Source: Escherichia phage vB_EcoM_DE15
Length of the DNA stretch: 53,998 nucleotides
Sequence record: NC_079184.1
Direction: 5' to 3' (one strand)
The notes below the pieces were generated by a model. It was not told where the DNA came from, made no database searches, and saw only the letters and a program-made list of their open reading frames with translations. Shown here piece by piece: positions 12,275-18,097 of the stretch. The position numbers were made by a program, and so were the translations under genes. Position 1 is the first letter of the stretch. Every line of letters starts with the position of its first letter.

Positions 12275-12345
12275 TTCCAGGCGGGTTTCTTCGAAGTGCC
12301 AAGCGGGTTTTGTACTCGCATTGGCCTTCGGCTTTAGTCTGAAAC

Positions 12346-12361
12346 ATTAGTGGGATTTGAT
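12346..12361 (+). promoter_or_regulatory. Putative phage-RNAP promoter (ATTAGTGGGATTTGAT)
   Basis: 13/16 match to the consensus. Shares the upstream TCTGAAAC with the sites at 12487 and 14583. Confidence 0.45.
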
Positions 12362-12470
12362 TCTGACCACTTAGGGAAGAAAGGCATTATACACTTATCG
12401 CCAAATGGGTGTCAAGCACTTTCTTCATTTATTTTAATTTATTCTTATTATTCTTTTTGTTTGGAATATT
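12362..12470 (+). ncRNA. Candidate small RNA 1
   Basis: 8-bp stem GAAGAAAG (12376-12383)/CTTTCTTC (12419-12426), followed by about 40 nt of T-rich sequence. No ORF. Confidence 0.3.
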
Positions 12471-12486
12471 GGAATAATTCTGAAAC

Positions 12487-12502
12487 ATTAATTGGAATTG
12501 AA
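12487..12502 (+). promoter_or_regulatory. Putative phage-RNAP promoter (ATTAATTGGAATTGAA)
   Basis: Consensus family member. Confidence 0.5.
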
Positions 12503-12615
12503 TTAGTGTAATTCTGTCTGTACTCTTTTCCACTAGCAATTGTAGAGGAAGTCCACTGCAATAAGCGCAGCCTCAAACAACCAAGTCTGGACAACTTGGG
12601 AAGAGAGTACAGCAC
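12503..12615 (+). ncRNA. Candidate small RNA 2
   Basis: 13-14-bp closing stem 12518-12531/12599-12612 (1 G-U). It encloses the hairpins CCAAGT..ACTTGG and CTGC..GCAG. Confidence 0.35.
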
Positions 12616-12623
12616 AAAATCAC

Positions 12624-12639
12624 ATTAGTTTGAATTGAA
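12624..12639 (+). promoter_or_regulatory. Putative phage-RNAP promoter (ATTAGTTTGAATTGAA)
   Basis: Consensus family member, 12 nt upstream of the tRNA-like element. Confidence 0.5.
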
Positions 12640-12651
12640 ACAACATCAGAT

Positions 12652-12725
12652 AAGAGCTTTGTAACTAGGTAGTCCGTCTGGTACCAAGACGTGTGAGAAC
12701 GTTCGATTCGTTCTACAAAGCTCTT
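12652..12725 (+). ncRNA. tRNA-shaped element (candidate small RNA 3)
   Basis: 12-bp closing stem, canonical T-arm GAACG-TTCGATT-CGTTC, 5-nt variable region and a 5-bp arm with loop GGTACCA (no U33). The D-arm is reduced to about 11 nt. Confidence 0.45.
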
Positions 12726-12728
12726 TTC

Positions 12729-15014: not shown

Positions 15015-16104
15015 GTTGCCGATGGCAAACTTGAGAGACTAAGCTAAATCGATCTGGCATGCACTGGAAGATTTCCGGTGCTGCCTTGAACCCATTCTGA
15101 AAGGAAGAGTGGGCTTCAATGAGCATTCTTGTGATTAGAGTTGGGAGGTAGGCCGATGCCCAAGCTCATGGCCCAGACAAGAGTGTTCATTGAAGTTACT
15201 TCAATATGGATTGTCGCCAAGTTGTGGAAGGACGTGCACACAGATTTAACGAAGAAAAGTAACAGCCTGAGAACTGTGAAAATTTCCCGTTATGTCGTGG
15301 GGAAGTGCACCATAGCTTGGGTTCTTCACGTAGATATTACTCAGATATTTGCGGCTCGCTGAATGTGAGCATCCATATTGAAGTAGTTTTCTGAGTCTTA
15401 CGACGGGCCTAAACTGCCTGAAGTTATTGCGACTGTTTTATTCATTTAAAATAAATGCAAATGATTCTGAAATGCGAGTTGCGGCTTAATTAAATTTAAG
15501 TCCTCTCCGTGGTCTTCCAATCCCACGTAACCAAATTTGGCGCATTGTGGCTTCGAGATGTGATTAATAAATCGGAGCAATAATTAATTTGTATTCTGCG
15601 ATGCAATGCAGGCTTAAGTCCCTCAGTGCGCGTGGGGATGTGACAGAGTACAAACTTAATTATGCAGTTGGATATTTCTAGAGGACGGACGAGCACACTG
15701 GAATGTCTTCAATTGGTTTAGTGTGAGAAGCTATGCCAATATGAAACGTAACTCCTTGGGGAAGTGCTCCTCTGGATTTCCCTCCACACAGGAATCTCAA
15801 GCCTGTGGCAGCGACTTCGAAGCTGCACTGCGTAACCTAAATTCACCCTAAAGTGAGTTGCCCTGAGTATGGAAATAAACTGCTCATAACCGATGGTATC
15901 TACAAAGGTAGATTAAATCAGGTTGCCTGTTGGTACTTGGGTTCAACACCTGCTTGCACTCGCAAAGTAGTGCCTCGTACCTGAGATGAAGTGAGTCGGG
16001 ACCATCAATCCCACGTTATGTCAAAACACAGTAGGCGGCTCACGGATTCTACAAGCCTCGCAGTTCGGGAAAACCTGCGTTATCAAAACCCCCCTCTTTT
16101 ATTT
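15015..16104 (+). ncRNA. ORF-free structured island 2 (candidate large ncRNA(s))
   Basis: No credible ORF. Many hand-foldable hairpins. The 11-mer CAATCCCACGT occurs twice (15518, 16006). Degenerate promoter cores at 15463-15485 and 15666-15675. Confidence 0.3.
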
Positions 16105-16196
16105 GGACGAGTAGCTCAGAAGGTTTGCATTGTGCTCAGTCAGGTAGAGCAATCTGTTCGACAGATGTGTCGTTGGTTCGAATCCAACCTCGTCCA
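16105..16196 (+). tRNA. Aberrant tRNA-like gene (possible pseudo-tRNA or tRNA mimic)
   Basis: 7/7 acceptor pairing GGACGAG/CTCGTCC, T-arm GTTGG-TTCGAAT-CCAAC and D-arm GCTC-AGTCAGGTA-GAGC. There is a ~20-nt insertion after a duplicated GCTCAG. The anticodon arm is only 15 nt (ATCTG-TTCGA-CAGAT). The 3' end is ACCCA. Confidence 0.45.
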
Positions 16197-16228
16197 CCCA
16201 CTTTAATAATAGCAATACTGGAGTCCTT

Positions 16229-16369
16229 ATGGATTTTGATGCACTTGATAATTTAGACTTCGGTGCTGCCGAAGAAGCAATTGAAGAACTTAAGAAGAAA
16301 CAGGACGAAGAAGCAATCGTTCCTGGTGAGGGCGATAACGACTGCTCAAGTGGTGCGTGCGCCATCTAA
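16229..16369 (+). CDS. Small acidic peptide with C-terminal CSSGACAI (46 aa)
   Basis: RBS GGAG at 16220-16223. Hand-translated as MDFDALDNLDFGAAEEAIEELKKKQDEEAIVPGEGDNDCSSGACAI. Confidence 0.45.
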   Translation: MDFDALDNLDFGAAEEAIEELKKKQDEEAIVPGEGDNDCSSGACAI

Positions 16370-16377
16370 GGTGATTC

Positions 16378-16614
16378 ATGCAACAGCTTAAGTCAATCTT
16401 TCTTGGCGTCTTGACTGCATTGGGTATTCTCCTTGCAGTGTTCCTCAAAGGCAAAAGCTCAGGCAAAGCCGAGGAGCGCCAGGAAGCCAAAGAGAAGCAA
16501 TTCGATTCCATTAAAGAATCTATCGAGATTAAAACGCATGTTCAGAAAGAAGTGTCTAGCAGTTCTGATAGCAATGTCGATAGTGAGTTGCTCTCAAAGT
16601 GGGTTCGTAAGTGA
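16378..16614 (+). CDS. i-spanin (Rz-like), 78 aa
   Basis: N-terminal TM segment IFLGVLTALGILLAVFL, a charged periplasmic domain, and an overlapping lipoprotein ORF. Confidence 0.7.
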   Translation: MQQLKSIFLGVLTALGILLAVFLKGKSSGKAEERQEAKEKQFDSIKESIEIKTHVQKEVSSSSDSNVDSELLSKWVRK

Positions 16615-16738
16615 TTACTGCATGATTGCACAACCAATCTATTTGGATGTTGCAGAAGTGAAAGTTTTATCACGCGAAACCAAAACACAGATTTTAGTCC
16701 ACAATGAAACGTGGGCACAAAAGTGTTCGAAACGATGA
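16538..16738 (+). CDS. o-spanin (Rz1-like lipoprotein), 66 aa, overlapped architecture
   Basis: MFRKKCLAVLIAMSIVSC lipobox. It starts inside the i-spanin gene in another frame and extends beyond it. Confidence 0.65.
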   Translation: MFRKKCLAVLIAMSIVSCSQSGFVSDYCMIAQPIYLDVAEVKVLSRETKTQILVHNETWAQKCSKR

Positions 16739-17181
16739 AATTATCAAAGCAGTATATTTACGACAGAGTTTCTAAGCGTCAGGAACCTACTTGGCAAGTA
16801 GACACAGATGGGTATTTATCTGCTTCGATTACTTTGCCAGAAGGCACTTTCAACGTAAGAAAACACATCTTGGTGTTCTACAAAACAAACGGATACATTC
16901 CAGATTTTGTGGACCATAAAGACAACAACAAATTAAACAATGCTCCAGACAACTTGCGAGAAGCAAGCAAGTGCCAGAATCAACAGAACTCCAAACGACC
17001 AAAGAATAACTCTTCTGGCGTTAAGGGTGTGTCACTAACCAAACACGGTAAATGGCAAGTTCGTATTATGGCAAATGGTGTGAAGCATTACGGTGGATTG
17101 TTTGACTCTCTCGAAGATGCCAAACAACACATAGAATCATTACGATTGAAATTACATAGTGATTTTGCTCGTAGTGTGTAG
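16735..17181 (+). CDS. HNH homing endonuclease with AP2-like DNA-binding domain (148 aa)
   Basis: HNH region VDHKDNNKLNNAPDNLRE. AP2-like region SGVKGVSLTKHGKWQVRI...GGLFDSLEDA. ATGA overlap with the o-spanin gene. Confidence 0.75.
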   Translation: MKLSKQYIYDRVSKRQEPTWQVDTDGYLSASITLPEGTFNVRKHILVFYKTNGYIPDFVDHKDNNKLNNAPDNLREASKCQNQQNSKRPKNNSSGVKGVSLTKHGKWQVRIMANGVKHYGGLFDSLEDAKQHIESLRLKLHSDFARSV

Positions 17182-18080
17182 AGTTAGCTTACCCGACAGT
17201 GAGTGAACAAGACGGACGTCTATAACTTCCCACATGGCCTAGCTAGTTGGTGGTGTAAAAGACTGACCAAGGTGACGACAGCCAAAGTCGAGGGAGTGCG
17301 CGACTTTAAATAACGAGACTCTAGCAACTTGTTGCGATGATGGTGTAAGCCCATGCGTTTGGAAGCAGGACTCCAACTCAAACAAACCTGCAAGTTGCTC
17401 TGGGCATAACAATTGAAATTGCTGCCTCGCATTGAACGCGAGAAAGTTCAGGTAGTCACTTCCTAGAACAGTGTCCGAGAACACCCTCGCCAAAGTGCTT
17501 GAGAACGTTAGCTCTGTCTTGCCAGCATTAATGGCACGTTGGCCGCGTAAAGGCCACAGCGTCTGACCAACGTATCGGTCACCAAATTCAATGGATTCGT
17601 AGAGTTAATTAAACCTGCACGATGGGATAGGGATGAAGCATCCGAGGCCGACTGTGTAATTGTGAACTTATCGTTCGCCGAATCCGCCAATTTACCTCCA
17701 ACAGTTATGCCTCTGTTCAAAAGGCTCAAGAGAGCGTCTGGCATACCGTAGCGATACGGCTTAGTTGCGCTGATTGTGTTGTGCAGAAAGAAAGTTCAGG
17801 CTTTCGTTTGGGTTACTCCTCATCCCGAAGTTAGCTGGATTCAAAATCCAGACTATGTTCCTATACACATGAAATATGCAAGTCGAGGGTTCTTAATGTT
17901 CAAACATGATGCGAGCATTAAGCGGGTTTATACTTTTCCCCGATGGTCCCCATAAACAAGGCTGATTCACTTGGGCGGTTCGAATCAAATTTAATAAGTG
18001 TCTTGGCCGCAGTGGAAACATCATTTAAGCCAATGTTTTGTAATGTTCGTAATAGTCCACGTCAGGACACTTAATTAAAT
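17182..18080 (+). ncRNA. ORF-free structured island 3 (candidate large ncRNA)
   Basis: 9-bp long-range helix 17323-17331/17391-17399. GCGA-capped hairpin at 17746-17759. 7-bp hairpin at 17835-17851. Degenerate promoter cores near 17242 and 17830. TAACGAGACTC is shared with the left end. Confidence 0.3.
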
Positions 18081-18097
18081 TTTAACTGGAGAGAGAC

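Follow-up and report, generated by a model that had tools for sequence, protein, structure and literature searches.

A gene-poor region of coliphage vB_EcoM_DE15 probably encodes structured RNAs, one of them apparently derived from tmRNA

What occupies a 5.8-kb stretch (positions 12,275 to 18,097) in the genome of vB_EcoM_DE15, a phiEcoM-GJ1-like coliphage of Carltongylesvirus (Chaseviridae), where open reading frames are scarce? Across the window, by which we mean the whole 53,998-nucleotide sequence (NC_079184.1), the gaps between plus-strand ORFs of at least 80 aa at 12043-13273 (island 1), 15015-16432 (island 2) and 17182-18375 (island 3) are among the genome's seven largest, which bears out the original prediction of three ORF-free islands, while its companion claim of tight gene packing elsewhere does not hold for the early region, where ORF-poor gaps also occur (e.g., 2593-3964). 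Island GC content (43-46%) is close to that of the genome overall (44%). The same three gaps, 0.7-2 kb each, are syntenic in nearly all of the Cleopatravirinae loci examined (Carltongylesvirus, Sabourvirus 4HA13, Faunusvirus, Loessnervirus, Suwonvirus, phiA050 and Myduc, in the last of which only the island-2 gap, 448 nt, could be anchored), whereas pAh6-C (Nefertitivirinae) is densely coded. Several segments are variably present among relatives (12515-12640, 15200-15400, 15635-15815 and the HNH gene at 16711-17181), and island 1 of phiEcoM-GJ1 holds an additional 134-aa ORF.

Evaluating substitutions against 7-11 relatives, we found every flanking gene to be strongly 3-periodic (e.g., 0/12/0), with no 3-periodicity in any island bin on either strand and a substitution density in the islands equal to or below that of the genes. 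Short island blocks are 85-97% identical across genera, versus 65-73% for adjacent genes, and these comparisons show that purifying selection acts on the islands although they are non-coding. Compensatory base changes are present in all three islands and, judged from the alignments, support structures in at least three modules (12637-12741, 15380-15578 and 17702-17890). This combination of conservation without codon periodicity and compensatory change argues for a battery of phage-encoded structured RNAs, as originally proposed, rather than for decayed genes. Folding z-scores qualify the accompanying description of the islands as dense in helices, being notable for some segments of islands 1 and 2 alone (e.g., 15080-15199, z -5.5); island 3 is thermodynamically ordinary, its structure visible through covariation alone. 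The predicted exact repeats all lie where they had been placed, namely ATGTATTGGGA at 12822 and 13030, CAATCCCACGT at 15518 and 16006, TGCCAA(A)GCGGGT at 12297 and 13006, CTTAATTAAATTT at 15485 and 18070, and TAACGAGACTC at 360 (the genome's left end) and 17311. Repeated 11-mers number 11 in the islands versus 1.2 expected from shuffles (maximum 6), with 2 in a coding control.

One module, hereafter the tag RNA (15380..15578, plus strand), is supported by covariation and by alignment to E. coli ssrA. It opens with the motif GAAGUAGUUUUC (15380-15391), followed by a variable hairpin, an A/U-rich leader and a GCA resume codon at 15457 that begins the tag ANDSEMRVAA plus stop (15457-15489), the stop codon sitting in a hairpin. 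Downstream are helix H5 (15485-15489 with 15496-15500), a first pseudoknot (S1, 15508-15512 with 15523-15527; S2, 15517-15520 with 15537-15540) and a second (first helix, 15541-15546 with 15557-15562; stem, 15550-15556 with 15572-15578, with invariant loop UGAUUAAUAA). Paired cells amount to 97.2% and 16 of 25 pairs show compensatory changes, a level reached in 0/500 shuffles and compared with 0-3 for slid controls, although shuffles overstate the significance of such counts since the aligned sequences are related by descent. Compared with nt 1-150 of E. coli ssrA, nt 4-143 are colinear with the tag RNA (z 6.1, in this segment only), which thus resembles the message half. The resume context, the 10-codon tag ending in Ala-Ala, the stop within a hairpin and the two pseudoknots are likewise tmRNA-like, and together these sequence comparisons identify 15380-15578 as a homologue of the mRNA-like portion of tmRNA. 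All homologues gave weak matches to the Rfam models tmRNA_permuted or alpha_tmRNA (best E 1e-4), with scores of 15-27 bits that fall far under the gathering scores (47-50) of the three best-matching tmRNA models; the RNA falls outside tmRNA membership. With default settings ARAGORN detected no tmRNA, and at 80% thresholds it reported a "resume consensus" plus exactly these tags in three genera; the tRNA-like domain (TLD) positions it proposed at relaxed thresholds are non-homologous between genera. In no lineage was a tRNA-like domain found next to the tag RNA, with no acceptor stem, T-arm or CCA attached.

Selection appears to act on the tag peptide itself. Third positions vary in 6 of the 10 tag codons, with up to four alleles, compared with 2 variable first and 3 variable second positions; 7 of 11 nucleotide variants encode ANDSEMRVAA, and in the +1 frame stop codons arise in 4HA13 and Faunus. 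Distant tags (ANDDVVLMAA, ANDAQFLAVA, ANDDLMLAAA) differ at many nucleotides but still have 10 codons, begin with AND and finish with (A/V)A, a pattern that shows conservation of the frame at the peptide level across distant phages. The frame has no start codon and no SD, and no known mechanism would decode it unless a TLD is linked to it covalently or helically. In two phages the tag RNA lies behind a sigma70 promoter (TTGACA-17-TAGATT in DS8, TTGACA-17-TAATCT in phiEa104) located 5-7 nt ahead of the conserved 5' motif, which would set the 5' end at this motif and suggests an RNA of ~170-200 nt; in phiEa104 it lies inside a tRNA array.

Other modules surround the tag RNA. Both tRNA-shaped elements of the original prediction, each with a canonical T-arm and a non-decoding anticodon arm, are present (12653-12724 and 16105-16196); a third T-arm-like element at 17835 is, in the alignment, a variable ordinary hairpin. 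The first of the two belongs to a small-RNA unit (12637..12741, plus strand; folding z -3.2) whose ends pair as an interrupted long stem (GAAACA/UGUUUC, CAUC/GAUG, AAGAGCUUUGUA/UACAAAGCUCUU, then UUUU) and whose tRNA-like apical module lacks a D-stem and carries, besides a 5-bp arm (loop GGUACCA), the T-arm GAACG-UUCGAUU-CGUUC (12697-12713). Compensatory changes affect 7 of its 23 predicted pairs, and across 15 loci the stem is kept in relatives while the apical module is exchanged among four versions. The second (16105..16196, plus strand; Rfam tRNA, 45.2 bits) has a 7-bp acceptor, a D-loop with a 23-nt insertion, the end A-CCC and a 5-bp anticodon arm with a 5-nt loop, UUCGA, which drawn as 4 bp + 7 nt would read Arg-UCG and contain a G32-C38 pair; the ARAGORN call is Leu(CAG) over 97 nt. 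Among relatives the insertion takes two alternative forms and the loop is UUCGA or UAAGA, and PYps3T has lost the gene. None of the phage tRNA-like elements carries the G3-U70 alanine identity pair. The rest of island 1 (12770..13273, plus strand) is a conserved block without codon periodicity in which invariant motifs (e.g., AAGCAAGCTGTTAGGGCTGAATAATT, 12849-12874) are interspersed with hairpins wholly replaced between relatives; it matched no Rfam family, and its resemblance to RNase P RNA was non-significant.

A similar RNA-like block without periodicity (15579..16100, plus strand) carries the second copy of the pseudoknot motif CAATCCCACGT, covarying hairpins (UCUAC/GUAGA to UCCAC/GUGGA; GCACU/AGUGC to GCAUU/AAUGC), a stem formed at long range (GUGAGUC/GGCUCAC) and, at 16059-16079, the hairpin CGCAG..CUGCG. 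Island 3 holds short plus-strand blocks (17286..17507) that are 93-97% identical in other genera, include TAACGAGACTC and are possibly a promoter. It also holds a seven-helix RNA (17702..17890, plus strand) without an Rfam match, comprising an H-type pseudoknot on its 5' side (CAG/CUG with GCCU/AGGC), GGCAUA/UAUGC as closing helix, further helices UAGCG/UGCGCUG and UGUGA/UCACA, a conserved stretch AUGAAAUAUGCAAG and a covarying hairpin with invariant loop UNCUCCUC at 17813-17823. Its pairs are formed in 96.9% of cells, and 16 of 41 are compensatory versus 3.7 +/- 1.6 when shuffled (0/500, overstated by shared descent as above) and 2-7 with slid partners.

Some island segments are probably no more than cis signals (terminators and promoters, a stem of RNase III type and possibly an origin). 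A pattern search recovered five matches to a phage promoter motif versus 0.22 expected, and the three full copies originally claimed are present, with CTGAAACATTAGTTGGA at 12339, 12480 and 14576. These putative plus-strand promoters span 12339..12355 (CTGAAACATTAGTGGGA), 12480-12496 and 14576-14592, sites also annotated as promoters in phiEcoM-GJ1 and SA91KD. A degenerate copy (12621..12636, plus strand; CACATTAGTTTGAATT) has a 3-nt deletion, the intact form AACATTAGTTGGAATTGAAG being held by relatives in an alignment of 15 loci. Between two of the phage promoters, and adjoining an AT-rich stretch, a leftward sigma70 promoter (12386..12415, minus strand; TTGACA-18-TATAAT) fits the consensus at 12/12 positions. 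A long-range 16-bp stem, GCUUCAAUGAGCAUUC/GAGUGUUCAUUGAAGU (15113..15196, plus strand), was found as an inverted match with folding z -5.5, covaries in 4HA13 (GCUUCAAUUUGUGCA/UGUGUACAAAUUGAAGU) and may serve as an RNase III-type processing site; the 3' arm immediately adjoins the 5' end of the tag RNA in relatives.

Taken together, we lean toward reading the stretch as a Chaseviridae phage ncRNA gene region, in which several small structured RNAs, tRNA- and tmRNA-derived, lie among promoters, terminators, mobile small genes and an HNH endonuclease. The tag RNA would be freed as a ~200-nt species, in vB_EcoM_DE15 via processing at the 16-bp stem and in DS8 and phiEa104 from its own sigma70 promoters, and its frame would be decoded on rescued ribosomes beginning at GCA. 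Because that frame has neither start codon nor SD, decoding would need a tRNA-like partner in trans, most likely the host Ala-tmRNA/SmpB complex or, should that fail, a non-decoding tRNA-like RNA of the phage itself. Trans-translation in the infected cell would thereby be redirected or blocked, and rescued proteins would bear a phage-specified tag; the island-3 RNA and the tRNA-like RNAs may act in the same translation/tRNA arena. The original prediction called the function entirely unknown, a statement now narrowed for one module, as a tmRNA-derived RNA with a tag frame conserved at the peptide level implicates host trans-translation rather than, or besides, decoying of tRNA-targeting defences.

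Two alternatives retain some weight, each with roughly one chance in a handful. The islands might hold nothing but elements that act in cis on long phage transcripts (terminators, promoters, RNase III sites and, for the cassettes downstream, structured 5' UTRs or translational operators, plus a T7-style replication origin in island 1) and no free-standing RNA genes. Consistent with this, SA91KD annotators placed terminators and promoters in the region, the 16-bp stem resembles an RNase III site, island 1 combines two phage promoters with an AT-rich stretch and a sigma70 promoter in antisense orientation, island 3 is immediately upstream of the replication module, and in L009, L010 and L013 a gene begins just past the tag RNA's last hairpin. 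However, cis signals alone leave the peptide-level conservation of a start-less frame unexplained, the tag RNA comes with a sigma70 promoter of its own in unrelated phages and also sits within a tRNA array, and ~3 kb of conserved multi-helix structure goes far beyond the need of known terminators or operators.

The other, comparably doubtful, is that the tag RNA is an untranslated tmRNA fossil or mimic, serving as a decoy, sponge or antisense inhibitor of host tmRNA, with S1, RNase R, SmpB or a tmRNA-sensing defence system as decoy targets. Without a TLD the RNA has no obvious route of ribosome entry, and inhibition of endogenous tmRNA is reported for a phage DS6A tmRNA that has no coding sequence (PMC11915505). 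In all lineages, 9-13 nt of the 5' motif are also complementary to ssrA codons 3-6, but this is statistically weak for vB_EcoM_DE15 (9 nt, non-significant, 55/300 shuffles) and borderline for pAh6-C (11 nt, 3/300 shuffles). Against an untranslated element, the synonymous excess, the multi-allelic third positions and the 10-codon length and Ala-Ala end kept across families argue for selection on the tag peptide.

Far less probable, and already contradicted by the evidence, is that the islands have no function and consist of decayed genes and scars left by recombination, the region being a mosaic hot spot of HNH endonucleases and morons: segments such as the HNH gene are gained and lost, phiEcoM-GJ1 has its extra ORF and inserts are flanked by repeated junction motifs such as ATTGAAGT, but blocks 85-97% identical across genera whose proteins are 65-80% identical, many helices with compensatory changes and subfamily-wide synteny speak otherwise, and homologous regions of relatives lack intact conserved ORFs. 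Just as improbable are unannotated small proteins, minus strand included (as annotated in Mangalitsa, Faunus and PYps16N), since despite the many 30-80-aa ORFs called here by annotators of Y2, PYps3T and Ecp_YSF, neither strand is 3-periodic, frameshifting indels are common, the ORFs are not kept from one relative to another and none matched a Pfam or PHROG family. One ORF (15156..15362, plus strand; 68 aa) is probably a genuine small gene whose presence varies, inserted in vB_EcoM_DE15 and few relatives, with an annotated homologue in SA91KD; it also matched no Pfam or PHROG family, and its good RBS (GGGAGG) runs counter to the claim that island ORFs lack one.

Returning to the tag RNA as part of an ncRNA gene region, a covariance model located it in both Chaseviridae subfamilies, Ackermannviridae, Ounavirinae and a siphovirus, and blastn matched 149 phage records, with no RNA gene annotated under the match among the 40 listed. 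Bacterial genomes gave no match, and metagenome matches were phage contigs only. The same unannotated RNA thus recurs in several unrelated phage groups, where it may act on host trans-translation. Set beside tmRNA, it corresponds to the mRNA-like part, with resume context, tag, stop in a hairpin and pseudoknots, and dispenses with the tRNA half.

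Searching with the 5.8-kb stretch at 12275-18097 revealed matches in 62 phage records, led at 96-97% identity by Escherichia phages SA91KD, JL1, Bp7 and ST32 and followed by phiEcoM-GJ1, the closest relatives belonging to the Chaseviridae, subfamily Cleopatravirinae, genus Carltongylesvirus; these phages are myoviruses, virulent, and their RNA polymerase is of the T7-like, single-subunit kind. The three ORF-poor islands that the original prediction had placed here (island 1, 12275-13273; island 2, 15015-16228; island 3, 17182-18097) are present, and anchoring the corresponding gaps in relatives by their flanking proteins (gp23, gA, the acidic protein, the 46-aa protein plus spanins, and gp32/ThyX) revealed the same three gaps, of 0.7-2 kb each, in every Carltongylesvirus as well as in 4HA13, Faunus, Aioli, Y2, PP101 and phiA050. 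Proteus phage Myduc has one anchorable gap only (448 nt, island 2), and in Aeromonas phage pAh6-C (Nefertitivirinae) the homologous region is densely coded. Annotation of these gaps is inconsistent: SA91KD carries terminators and promoters, Mangalitsa and Y2 carry ORFs of 30-80 aa, and several others are blank.

Mapping the substitutions of 7, and later 11, close relatives onto the window, we found a codon signature in every flanking gene (e.g., 0/12/0 or 1/13/2 per 60-100 nt) and, with either set of relatives, in none of the island bins on either strand; frameshifting indels also occur in the islands in this comparison. Variable sites numbered 5 in 15455-15575 and 2-4 in 17915-18035 versus 12-27 in genes, with many island bins changing less than genes, and across genera short island blocks are 85-97% identical versus 65-73% for the adjoining gp28 gene. 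From the missing codon signature, the low substitution and the cross-genus identity above that of gp28, sequence comparison indicates that the islands are non-coding yet constrained. The exact repeats named beforehand were all recovered (repeated 11-mers 11 versus 1.2, about nine-fold enriched), and the annotated phage promoter motif is complete at three places (12339, 12480 and 14576). Folding z-scores were exceptional only at 12500-12739, 12860-12979, 15080-15199 (z -5.5) and 15260-15379, with island 3 unexceptional; island GC is close to the genome mean, and the early region holds other ORF-poor gaps. Island ORFs had no family matches in Pfam or PHROGs, the sole Rfam match at gathering thresholds was a tRNA-like gene, and Rfam in E-value mode returned nothing meaningful for islands 1 and 3. 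The original prediction was largely right in what it observed, and its main reading, a set of phage-encoded structured RNAs, is backed by the comparative evidence. Non-coding RNA takes up about 6% of this 54-kb phage genome, in regions that current annotation leaves empty or populates with small ORFs that are spurious.

The most widely conserved block of island 2 (15372-15580) contains what we call the tag RNA (15380-15578, + strand), whose alignment displays a frame at 15457-15489 reading AAAAUAAAU GCA AAU GAU UCU GAA AUG CGA GUU GCG GCU UAA, that is, ANDSEMRVAA followed by a stop. The frame has neither a start codon nor a Shine-Dalgarno sequence, the phiEcoM-GJ1 version carries an in-frame UAA six codons upstream of it, and its A-rich context (AAAAUAAAU-GCA), 10 codons and hydrophobic-Ala-Ala ending before the stop are those of a tmRNA resume codon and tag. 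Across homologues the tags read ANDSEMRVAA, ANDNEMRAAA, ANDDVVLMAA, ANDAQFLAVA and ANDDLMLAAA. Substitutions in the frame are mostly synonymous: third codon positions vary at 6 of 10 codons, one of them with all four bases, first positions at 2 and second positions at 3, and 7 of the 11 distinct nucleotide versions of the tag encode an identical peptide. An overlapping +1 frame (AUG/GUG ... 12 codons) was rejected, as it shows radical non-synonymous changes and has stops in 4HA13 and Faunus.

Further evidence connects this segment to tmRNA. Rfam in E-value mode gave tmRNA_permuted and alpha_tmRNA as the region's only non-tRNA matches with E < 1, exactly at the tag segment, and every tag-RNA homologue tested matches these families (best E 1e-4 in a 600-nt search), at 15-27 bits against gathering scores of 47-50. 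Local alignment placed the tag RNA colinear with E. coli ssrA, the host tmRNA gene, over ssrA nt 4-143 (score 42 versus 20-24 +/- 3.7 in shuffles, z 6.1), with no signal from other island segments or from the rest of ssrA, and ARAGORN at 80% thresholds prints a 'resume consensus' with the tags ANDSEMRVAA, ANDSEMRMVA and ANDNEMRAAA for phiA050, Faunus and Y2. The stop codon lies in a hairpin equivalent to tmRNA helix H5, followed by two H-type pseudoknots; in a 14-sequence alignment from four phage groups 97.2% of cells are paired and 16 of 25 pairs have changed on both sides, a level reached by 0 of 500 shuffles, while slid 3' partners give 0-3, and within the Cleopatravirinae alone 99.6% are paired. 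Upstream of the tag there is no conserved PK1, the candidate hairpin at 15403-15420 being deleted in other genera. Together, six independent lines support descent of the tag RNA from tmRNA. Partial second copies of its motifs lie downstream, at 15611-15650 and 15995-16020 (GGCTTAAGTCC, resembling H5, and CATCAATCCCACGT, resembling the first pseudoknot), their likeness suggesting an old internal duplication.

The tRNA-like half of tmRNA is missing. The tag RNA has no 7-bp acceptor stem, T-arm or 3' CCA, ARAGORN run with its defaults calls no tmRNA either in the window or in any of 24 related loci, and nothing credible combining a T-arm with a strand complementary to the 5' end was found. Wider searches for a separate tRNA half, which looked for complements of GAAGUAG or UUUUCUG, scanned for T-arms, ran ARAGORN with thresholds of 80-90% and compared each island with ssrA nt 290-363, yielded nothing consistent between genera, the sole weak T-arm-like match (15929-15953, z 0.4) being missing in TH24 and TH26; the tRNA-like domains that ARAGORN proposes at relaxed thresholds were rejected, since their positions are non-homologous between genera and some fall within protein genes. 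There is also no G3-U70 pair, as the tag RNA lacks an acceptor stem and no inspected phage tRNA-like element has one (A3-U70 in the element at 16105, G2-U71 in that of phiEa104). The 5' end is marked by near-consensus sigma70 promoters in DS8 (TTGACA-17-TAGATT) and phiEa104 (TTGACA-17-TAATCT), which sit 5-7 nt before the motif (A/G)UAGUUUUCGU, a motif conserved in all lineages and at which conservation in Chaseviridae starts too. These positions give an RNA of 170-200 nt (about 75-95 nt from motif to resume codon and about 120 nt beyond), which leaves no room for a T-arm or acceptor stem. In the window and most relatives the motif follows straight on from the 3' arm of a 16-bp stem (15113-15196) that covaries and that we infer to be a processing site. 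By the defining features of the family, then, the tag RNA is not a tmRNA; it is a tmRNA-derived 'message half'.

Distribution was evaluated with a covariance model built on the Cleopatravirinae alignment, which recovered the tag RNA from Aeromonas phage pAh6-C in the other Chaseviridae subfamily (48 bits, ANDDLMLAAA with UAA UAA), the Shigella siphovirus DS8 (80.6 bits, ANDDVVLMAA), the Klebsiella phage Magnus of the Ackermannviridae (74 bits, ANDDVVLMAA with a synonymous change) and the Felix O1-like Erwinia phage phiEa104 of the Ounavirinae (78 bits, ANDAQFLAVA). All four matches keep ten codons, the Ala-Asn-Asp start and the (Ala/Val)-Ala end. Pieces of the tag RNA occur by blastn in 149 phage records, with hosts in Erwinia, Escherichia, Salmonella, Klebsiella, Yersinia, Shigella, Aeromonas and Vibrio, and among the 40 of these matches listed none has an RNA gene annotated under it. 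Pattern scans of IMG/VR and metagenomes found the RNA on phage-like contigs only, in 185,579 bacterial and archaeal genomes the pattern turned up only by chance, inside genes, and none of 5,426 E. coli genomes was matched by blastn; given these empty scans, we see no evidence for a recent host origin or for prophage copies. The tmRNA database of PMC11915505 would miss the tag RNA, because its curation demands CCA-tail positions; about 97,000 tmRNA sequences are catalogued, 79 of them from phages. Two records deserve separate mention. In pAh6-C the tag RNA is flanked by two copies of an element (5318-5365 and 5527-5575), each a hairpin followed by CUAUGGUAUGUUUA, which may be that phage's own promoter or processing signal. 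PP952070.1, whose deposited name is 'Staphylococcus phage Pel53' and whose stated host is Staphylococcus hyicus, is a member of the Chaseviridae about 85-90% identical to coliphages in this region, and its host assignment looks doubtful.

A half-tmRNA with a conserved tag frame, present in several unrelated phage groups, is a new result. A search of one literature library for non-coding RNAs of Chaseviridae and for tmRNA-like phage RNAs yielded no relevant description. Compact and with clear boundaries, the RNA is present in coliphages that can be cultivated, among them phiEcoM-GJ1 relatives and Felix O1-like and Vi1-like phages, types used in phage therapy and biocontrol. That it encodes a tag without an attached tRNA-like domain raises the question of how a start-less frame reaches the ribosome, and suggests that virulent enterobacterial phages manipulate ribosome rescue or protein-quality tagging.

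For the mechanism, which we infer, the selection acting on the peptide is the starting point, as it implies decoding, and for a frame with no start to be decoded, a tRNA-like partner would have to deliver it. Candidate partners would be the host Ala-tmRNA-SmpB complex or the phage tRNA-like RNAs; no SmpB gene is annotated in the inspected stretches of relatives. Between the 5' motif and codons 3-6 of the ssrA tag (GAC GAA AAC UAC) the complementarity spans 9 nt in vB_EcoM_DE15, 10 in DS8, 11 in pAh6-C and Loessnervirus and 11-13 in phiEa104. Antisense pairing was assessed with RNAduplex, which builds unrealistic global duplexes and was no guide, and by longest-run permutation, under which the 9-nt run of vB_EcoM_DE15 is not significant (55 of 300 shuffles) and the 11-nt run of pAh6-C is borderline (3 of 300). 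We take pairing of the tag RNA with host ssrA as a lead rather than a result. A tag RNA acting as a non-translated decoy or antisense could draw on the same complementarity, and the peptide-level selection points instead to decoding; we regard this explanation as unlikely. The translated alternative, in which the tag RNA is a parasitic 'message cartridge' for host ribosome rescue and makes a hybrid two-piece tmRNA across species, is one that we advance as a long shot. The cartridge's 5' motif, (A/G)UAGUUUUCGU, would pair with host tag codons 3-6 and block the host tag, while the same pairing would tether the phage resume codon to the host alanyl-tRNA-like domain and SmpB; rescued ribosomes in infected cells would then append ANDSEMRVAA or its variants, not ANDENYALAA, and what becomes of truncated proteins, whether from phage or host, would change. 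If true, the presence of the RNA in Chaseviridae, Ackermannviridae, Ounavirinae and siphoviruses would make this a widespread, unrecognised phage strategy.

Turning to the tRNA-like genes, the element at 16105-16196 scores 45.2 bits against the Rfam tRNA threshold of 29, with a 7-bp acceptor (GGACGAG/CUCGUCC) and a canonical T-arm (GUUGG-UUCGAAU-CCAAC). Its anticodon arm and D-arm are not those of a normal tRNA: a 5-bp stem carries a 5-nt loop, UUCGA (UAAGA in two relatives), with a G32-C38 pair, and the D-loop holds a 23-nt insertion that has two alternative versions among relatives. Its identity varies by tool (Leu, Arg, Ser or none), and the gene is deleted in PYps3T. The window has two tRNA-like RNAs; Faunus, 4HA13, phiA050 and a metagenomic relative have up to four, which end in an encoded CCA and close their 'anticodon' arms with a GNRA tetraloop, a triloop or some other loop that is no anticodon. 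Loci of other Cleopatravirinae (L012 5022-5775, L010 8502-8715, L009 4614-4697 and L013 5819-5898) hold one to four tRNA-like genes each, with 7-bp acceptors, canonical T-arms and mostly an encoded CCA; their 'anticodon' arms are lengthened and end in GCAA, a triloop or an 11-nt loop, and ARAGORN overlooks most of these genes. In phiEa104, directly upstream of the tag RNA's sigma70 promoter and inside a tRNA array, we found a 171-nt tRNA-like RNA (966-1136) whose acceptor stem, GGGUGAUU/AAUCACUC, has 8 bp and whose other features are a G-CCA end, the T-arm GAGG-UUCGAAU-CCUU and the G2-U71 pair; recognised by neither Rfam nor ARAGORN, it is a possible tRNA-half partner.

Beyond the tag RNA, the locus adds at least two structured RNA families backed by covariation. 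Island 1 opens with terminator-like hairpins, then two phage promoters around an AT-rich stretch and a degenerate promoter at 12621. Between the + strand phage promoters at 12339 and 12480 lies a perfect sigma70 consensus, TTGACA-18-TATAAT (12386-12415, - strand), directed leftward and adjoined by the AT-rich stretch (12420-12480), a layout reminiscent, by analogy, of a T7 primary origin or an antisense-RNA control unit. The first covarying family is a unit of about 105 nt (12637-12741) whose ends form a long interrupted stem and whose apex is a tRNA-like module; covariation is seen in its upper stem, with 7 of 23 pairs compensatory, and the apex is swapped among four unrelated versions in relatives, two with their own T-arm. 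From 12770 to 13273 invariant motifs alternate with hairpins exchanged wholesale, the motif AAGCAAGCTGTTAGGGCTGAATAATT (12849-12874) staying 90-93% identical even where little else of island 1 aligns, as in Y2 and Proteus phage Myduc. An RNase P RNA at 12900-13200 was considered and rejected, there being just a CR-I-like motif (GAGGAAGUCGG..ACAGGGC), an rnpB alignment score of 35 versus 32 +/- 4.8 in shuffles, and no Rfam match at E up to 10. Island 2 holds more covarying hairpins 3' of the tag RNA. The second family, in island 3, is an RNA of about 190 nt (17702-17890) with seven helices, including a 5' pseudoknot, and no Rfam match; 96.9% of its cells are paired, 16 of 41 pairs are compensatory versus 3.7 +/- 1.6 in shuffles, and the single-stranded stretches UNCUCCUC and AUGAAAUAUGCAAG are invariant. 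A third T-arm proposed at 17835 turned out to be merely the variable sixth hairpin of this RNA, with a loop that is not conserved. The motif (T)A(A)CGAGACTC occurs in three related forms at the genome's left end (~312, ~337 and 360) and once in island 3 (17311), where the surrounding block shares 97% identity with Erwinia phage Aioli. The motif is similar to the T7 promoter core ACGACTCAC and may represent a true phage-RNAP promoter class, the phage-RNAP promoters of these phages not having been identified according to ICTV.

Small genes move through these islands. The expectation that island ORFs lack ribosome-binding sites failed for a 68-aa ORF at 15156-15362, which has a GGGAGG site and an annotated homologue (SA91KD_35); inserted between the tag RNA and the long stem, where the junction sequence ATTGAAGT is duplicated, present in 1-2 of 7 close relatives and without a family match, it is probably a real gene held by few relatives. 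The HNH endonuclease gene after the spanins (16711-17181) is an insertion found in 0 of 11 aligned close relatives. Since relatives' HNH genes sit at other positions and are only 40-43% identical to it, such genes move around the islands.

Among known systems, the 12637-12741 unit recalls the tRNA-like modules of YrlA (a bacterial Y RNA), mascRNA and viral TLS in its long terminal stem with an apical T-arm and a GG-containing D-loop analogue. Its long stem, however, extends the acceptor position rather than the anticodon position, the window has no Rfam YrlA or mascRNA match, and no Ro/Rsr gene is annotated in the inspected stretches of relatives. The locus as a whole resembles phage tRNA clusters with stable RNAs, such as the T4 tRNA region with its RNAs C and D and the T5 tRNA arrays. 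As in those of T4, T5 and Felix O1, an ORF-free region holds tRNA or tRNA-like genes with other small stable RNAs; the phiEa104 tag RNA lies inside such an array, and relatives hold true tRNAs here (Cys in L009, Arg in Myduc), whereas the window's single tRNA-like gene is non-canonical and other structured RNAs fill most of the 3 kb.

The tag RNA itself is closest to tmRNA (SsrA, RF00023), with which it shares an A-rich leader with a UAAAU/UAAGU-GCA resume context, a start-less tag of about 10 codons beginning Ala-Asn-Asp and ending Ala-Ala (ANDENYALAA in E. coli), and one or more stop codons in the H5 hairpin with H-type pseudoknots after it, colinear with E. coli ssrA nt 4-143. It lacks the acceptor stem, T-arm, CCA end and helix 2 of tmRNA, has just two pseudoknots, both 3' of the tag, measures about 170-200 rather than about 360 nt, is encoded by virulent phages and is missed by default ARAGORN. 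Two-piece permuted tmRNAs of Alpha- and Betaproteobacteria and cyanobacteria (RF01849-51, RF04321), where the tag RNA's best Rfam matches fall, likewise place the tag frame on a separate RNA that needs a second one for tRNA-like function. There, one gene yields both pieces, the coding piece giving the 5' acceptor strand and pairing with the acceptor piece (PMC11915505), whereas no complementary acceptor piece was found upstream of the tag RNA or elsewhere in the window. Reduction to one half has a counterpart in the TLD-only tmRNAs of some plastids, mitochondria and mycobacteriophage DS6A, all of them CDS-less; for the DS6A one, inhibition of host tmRNA has been reported (PMC11915505). In those RNAs the tag is gone and the tRNA-like domain remains, and the phage tag RNA is their mirror image, keeping the tag and the pseudoknots without the tRNA-like domain.
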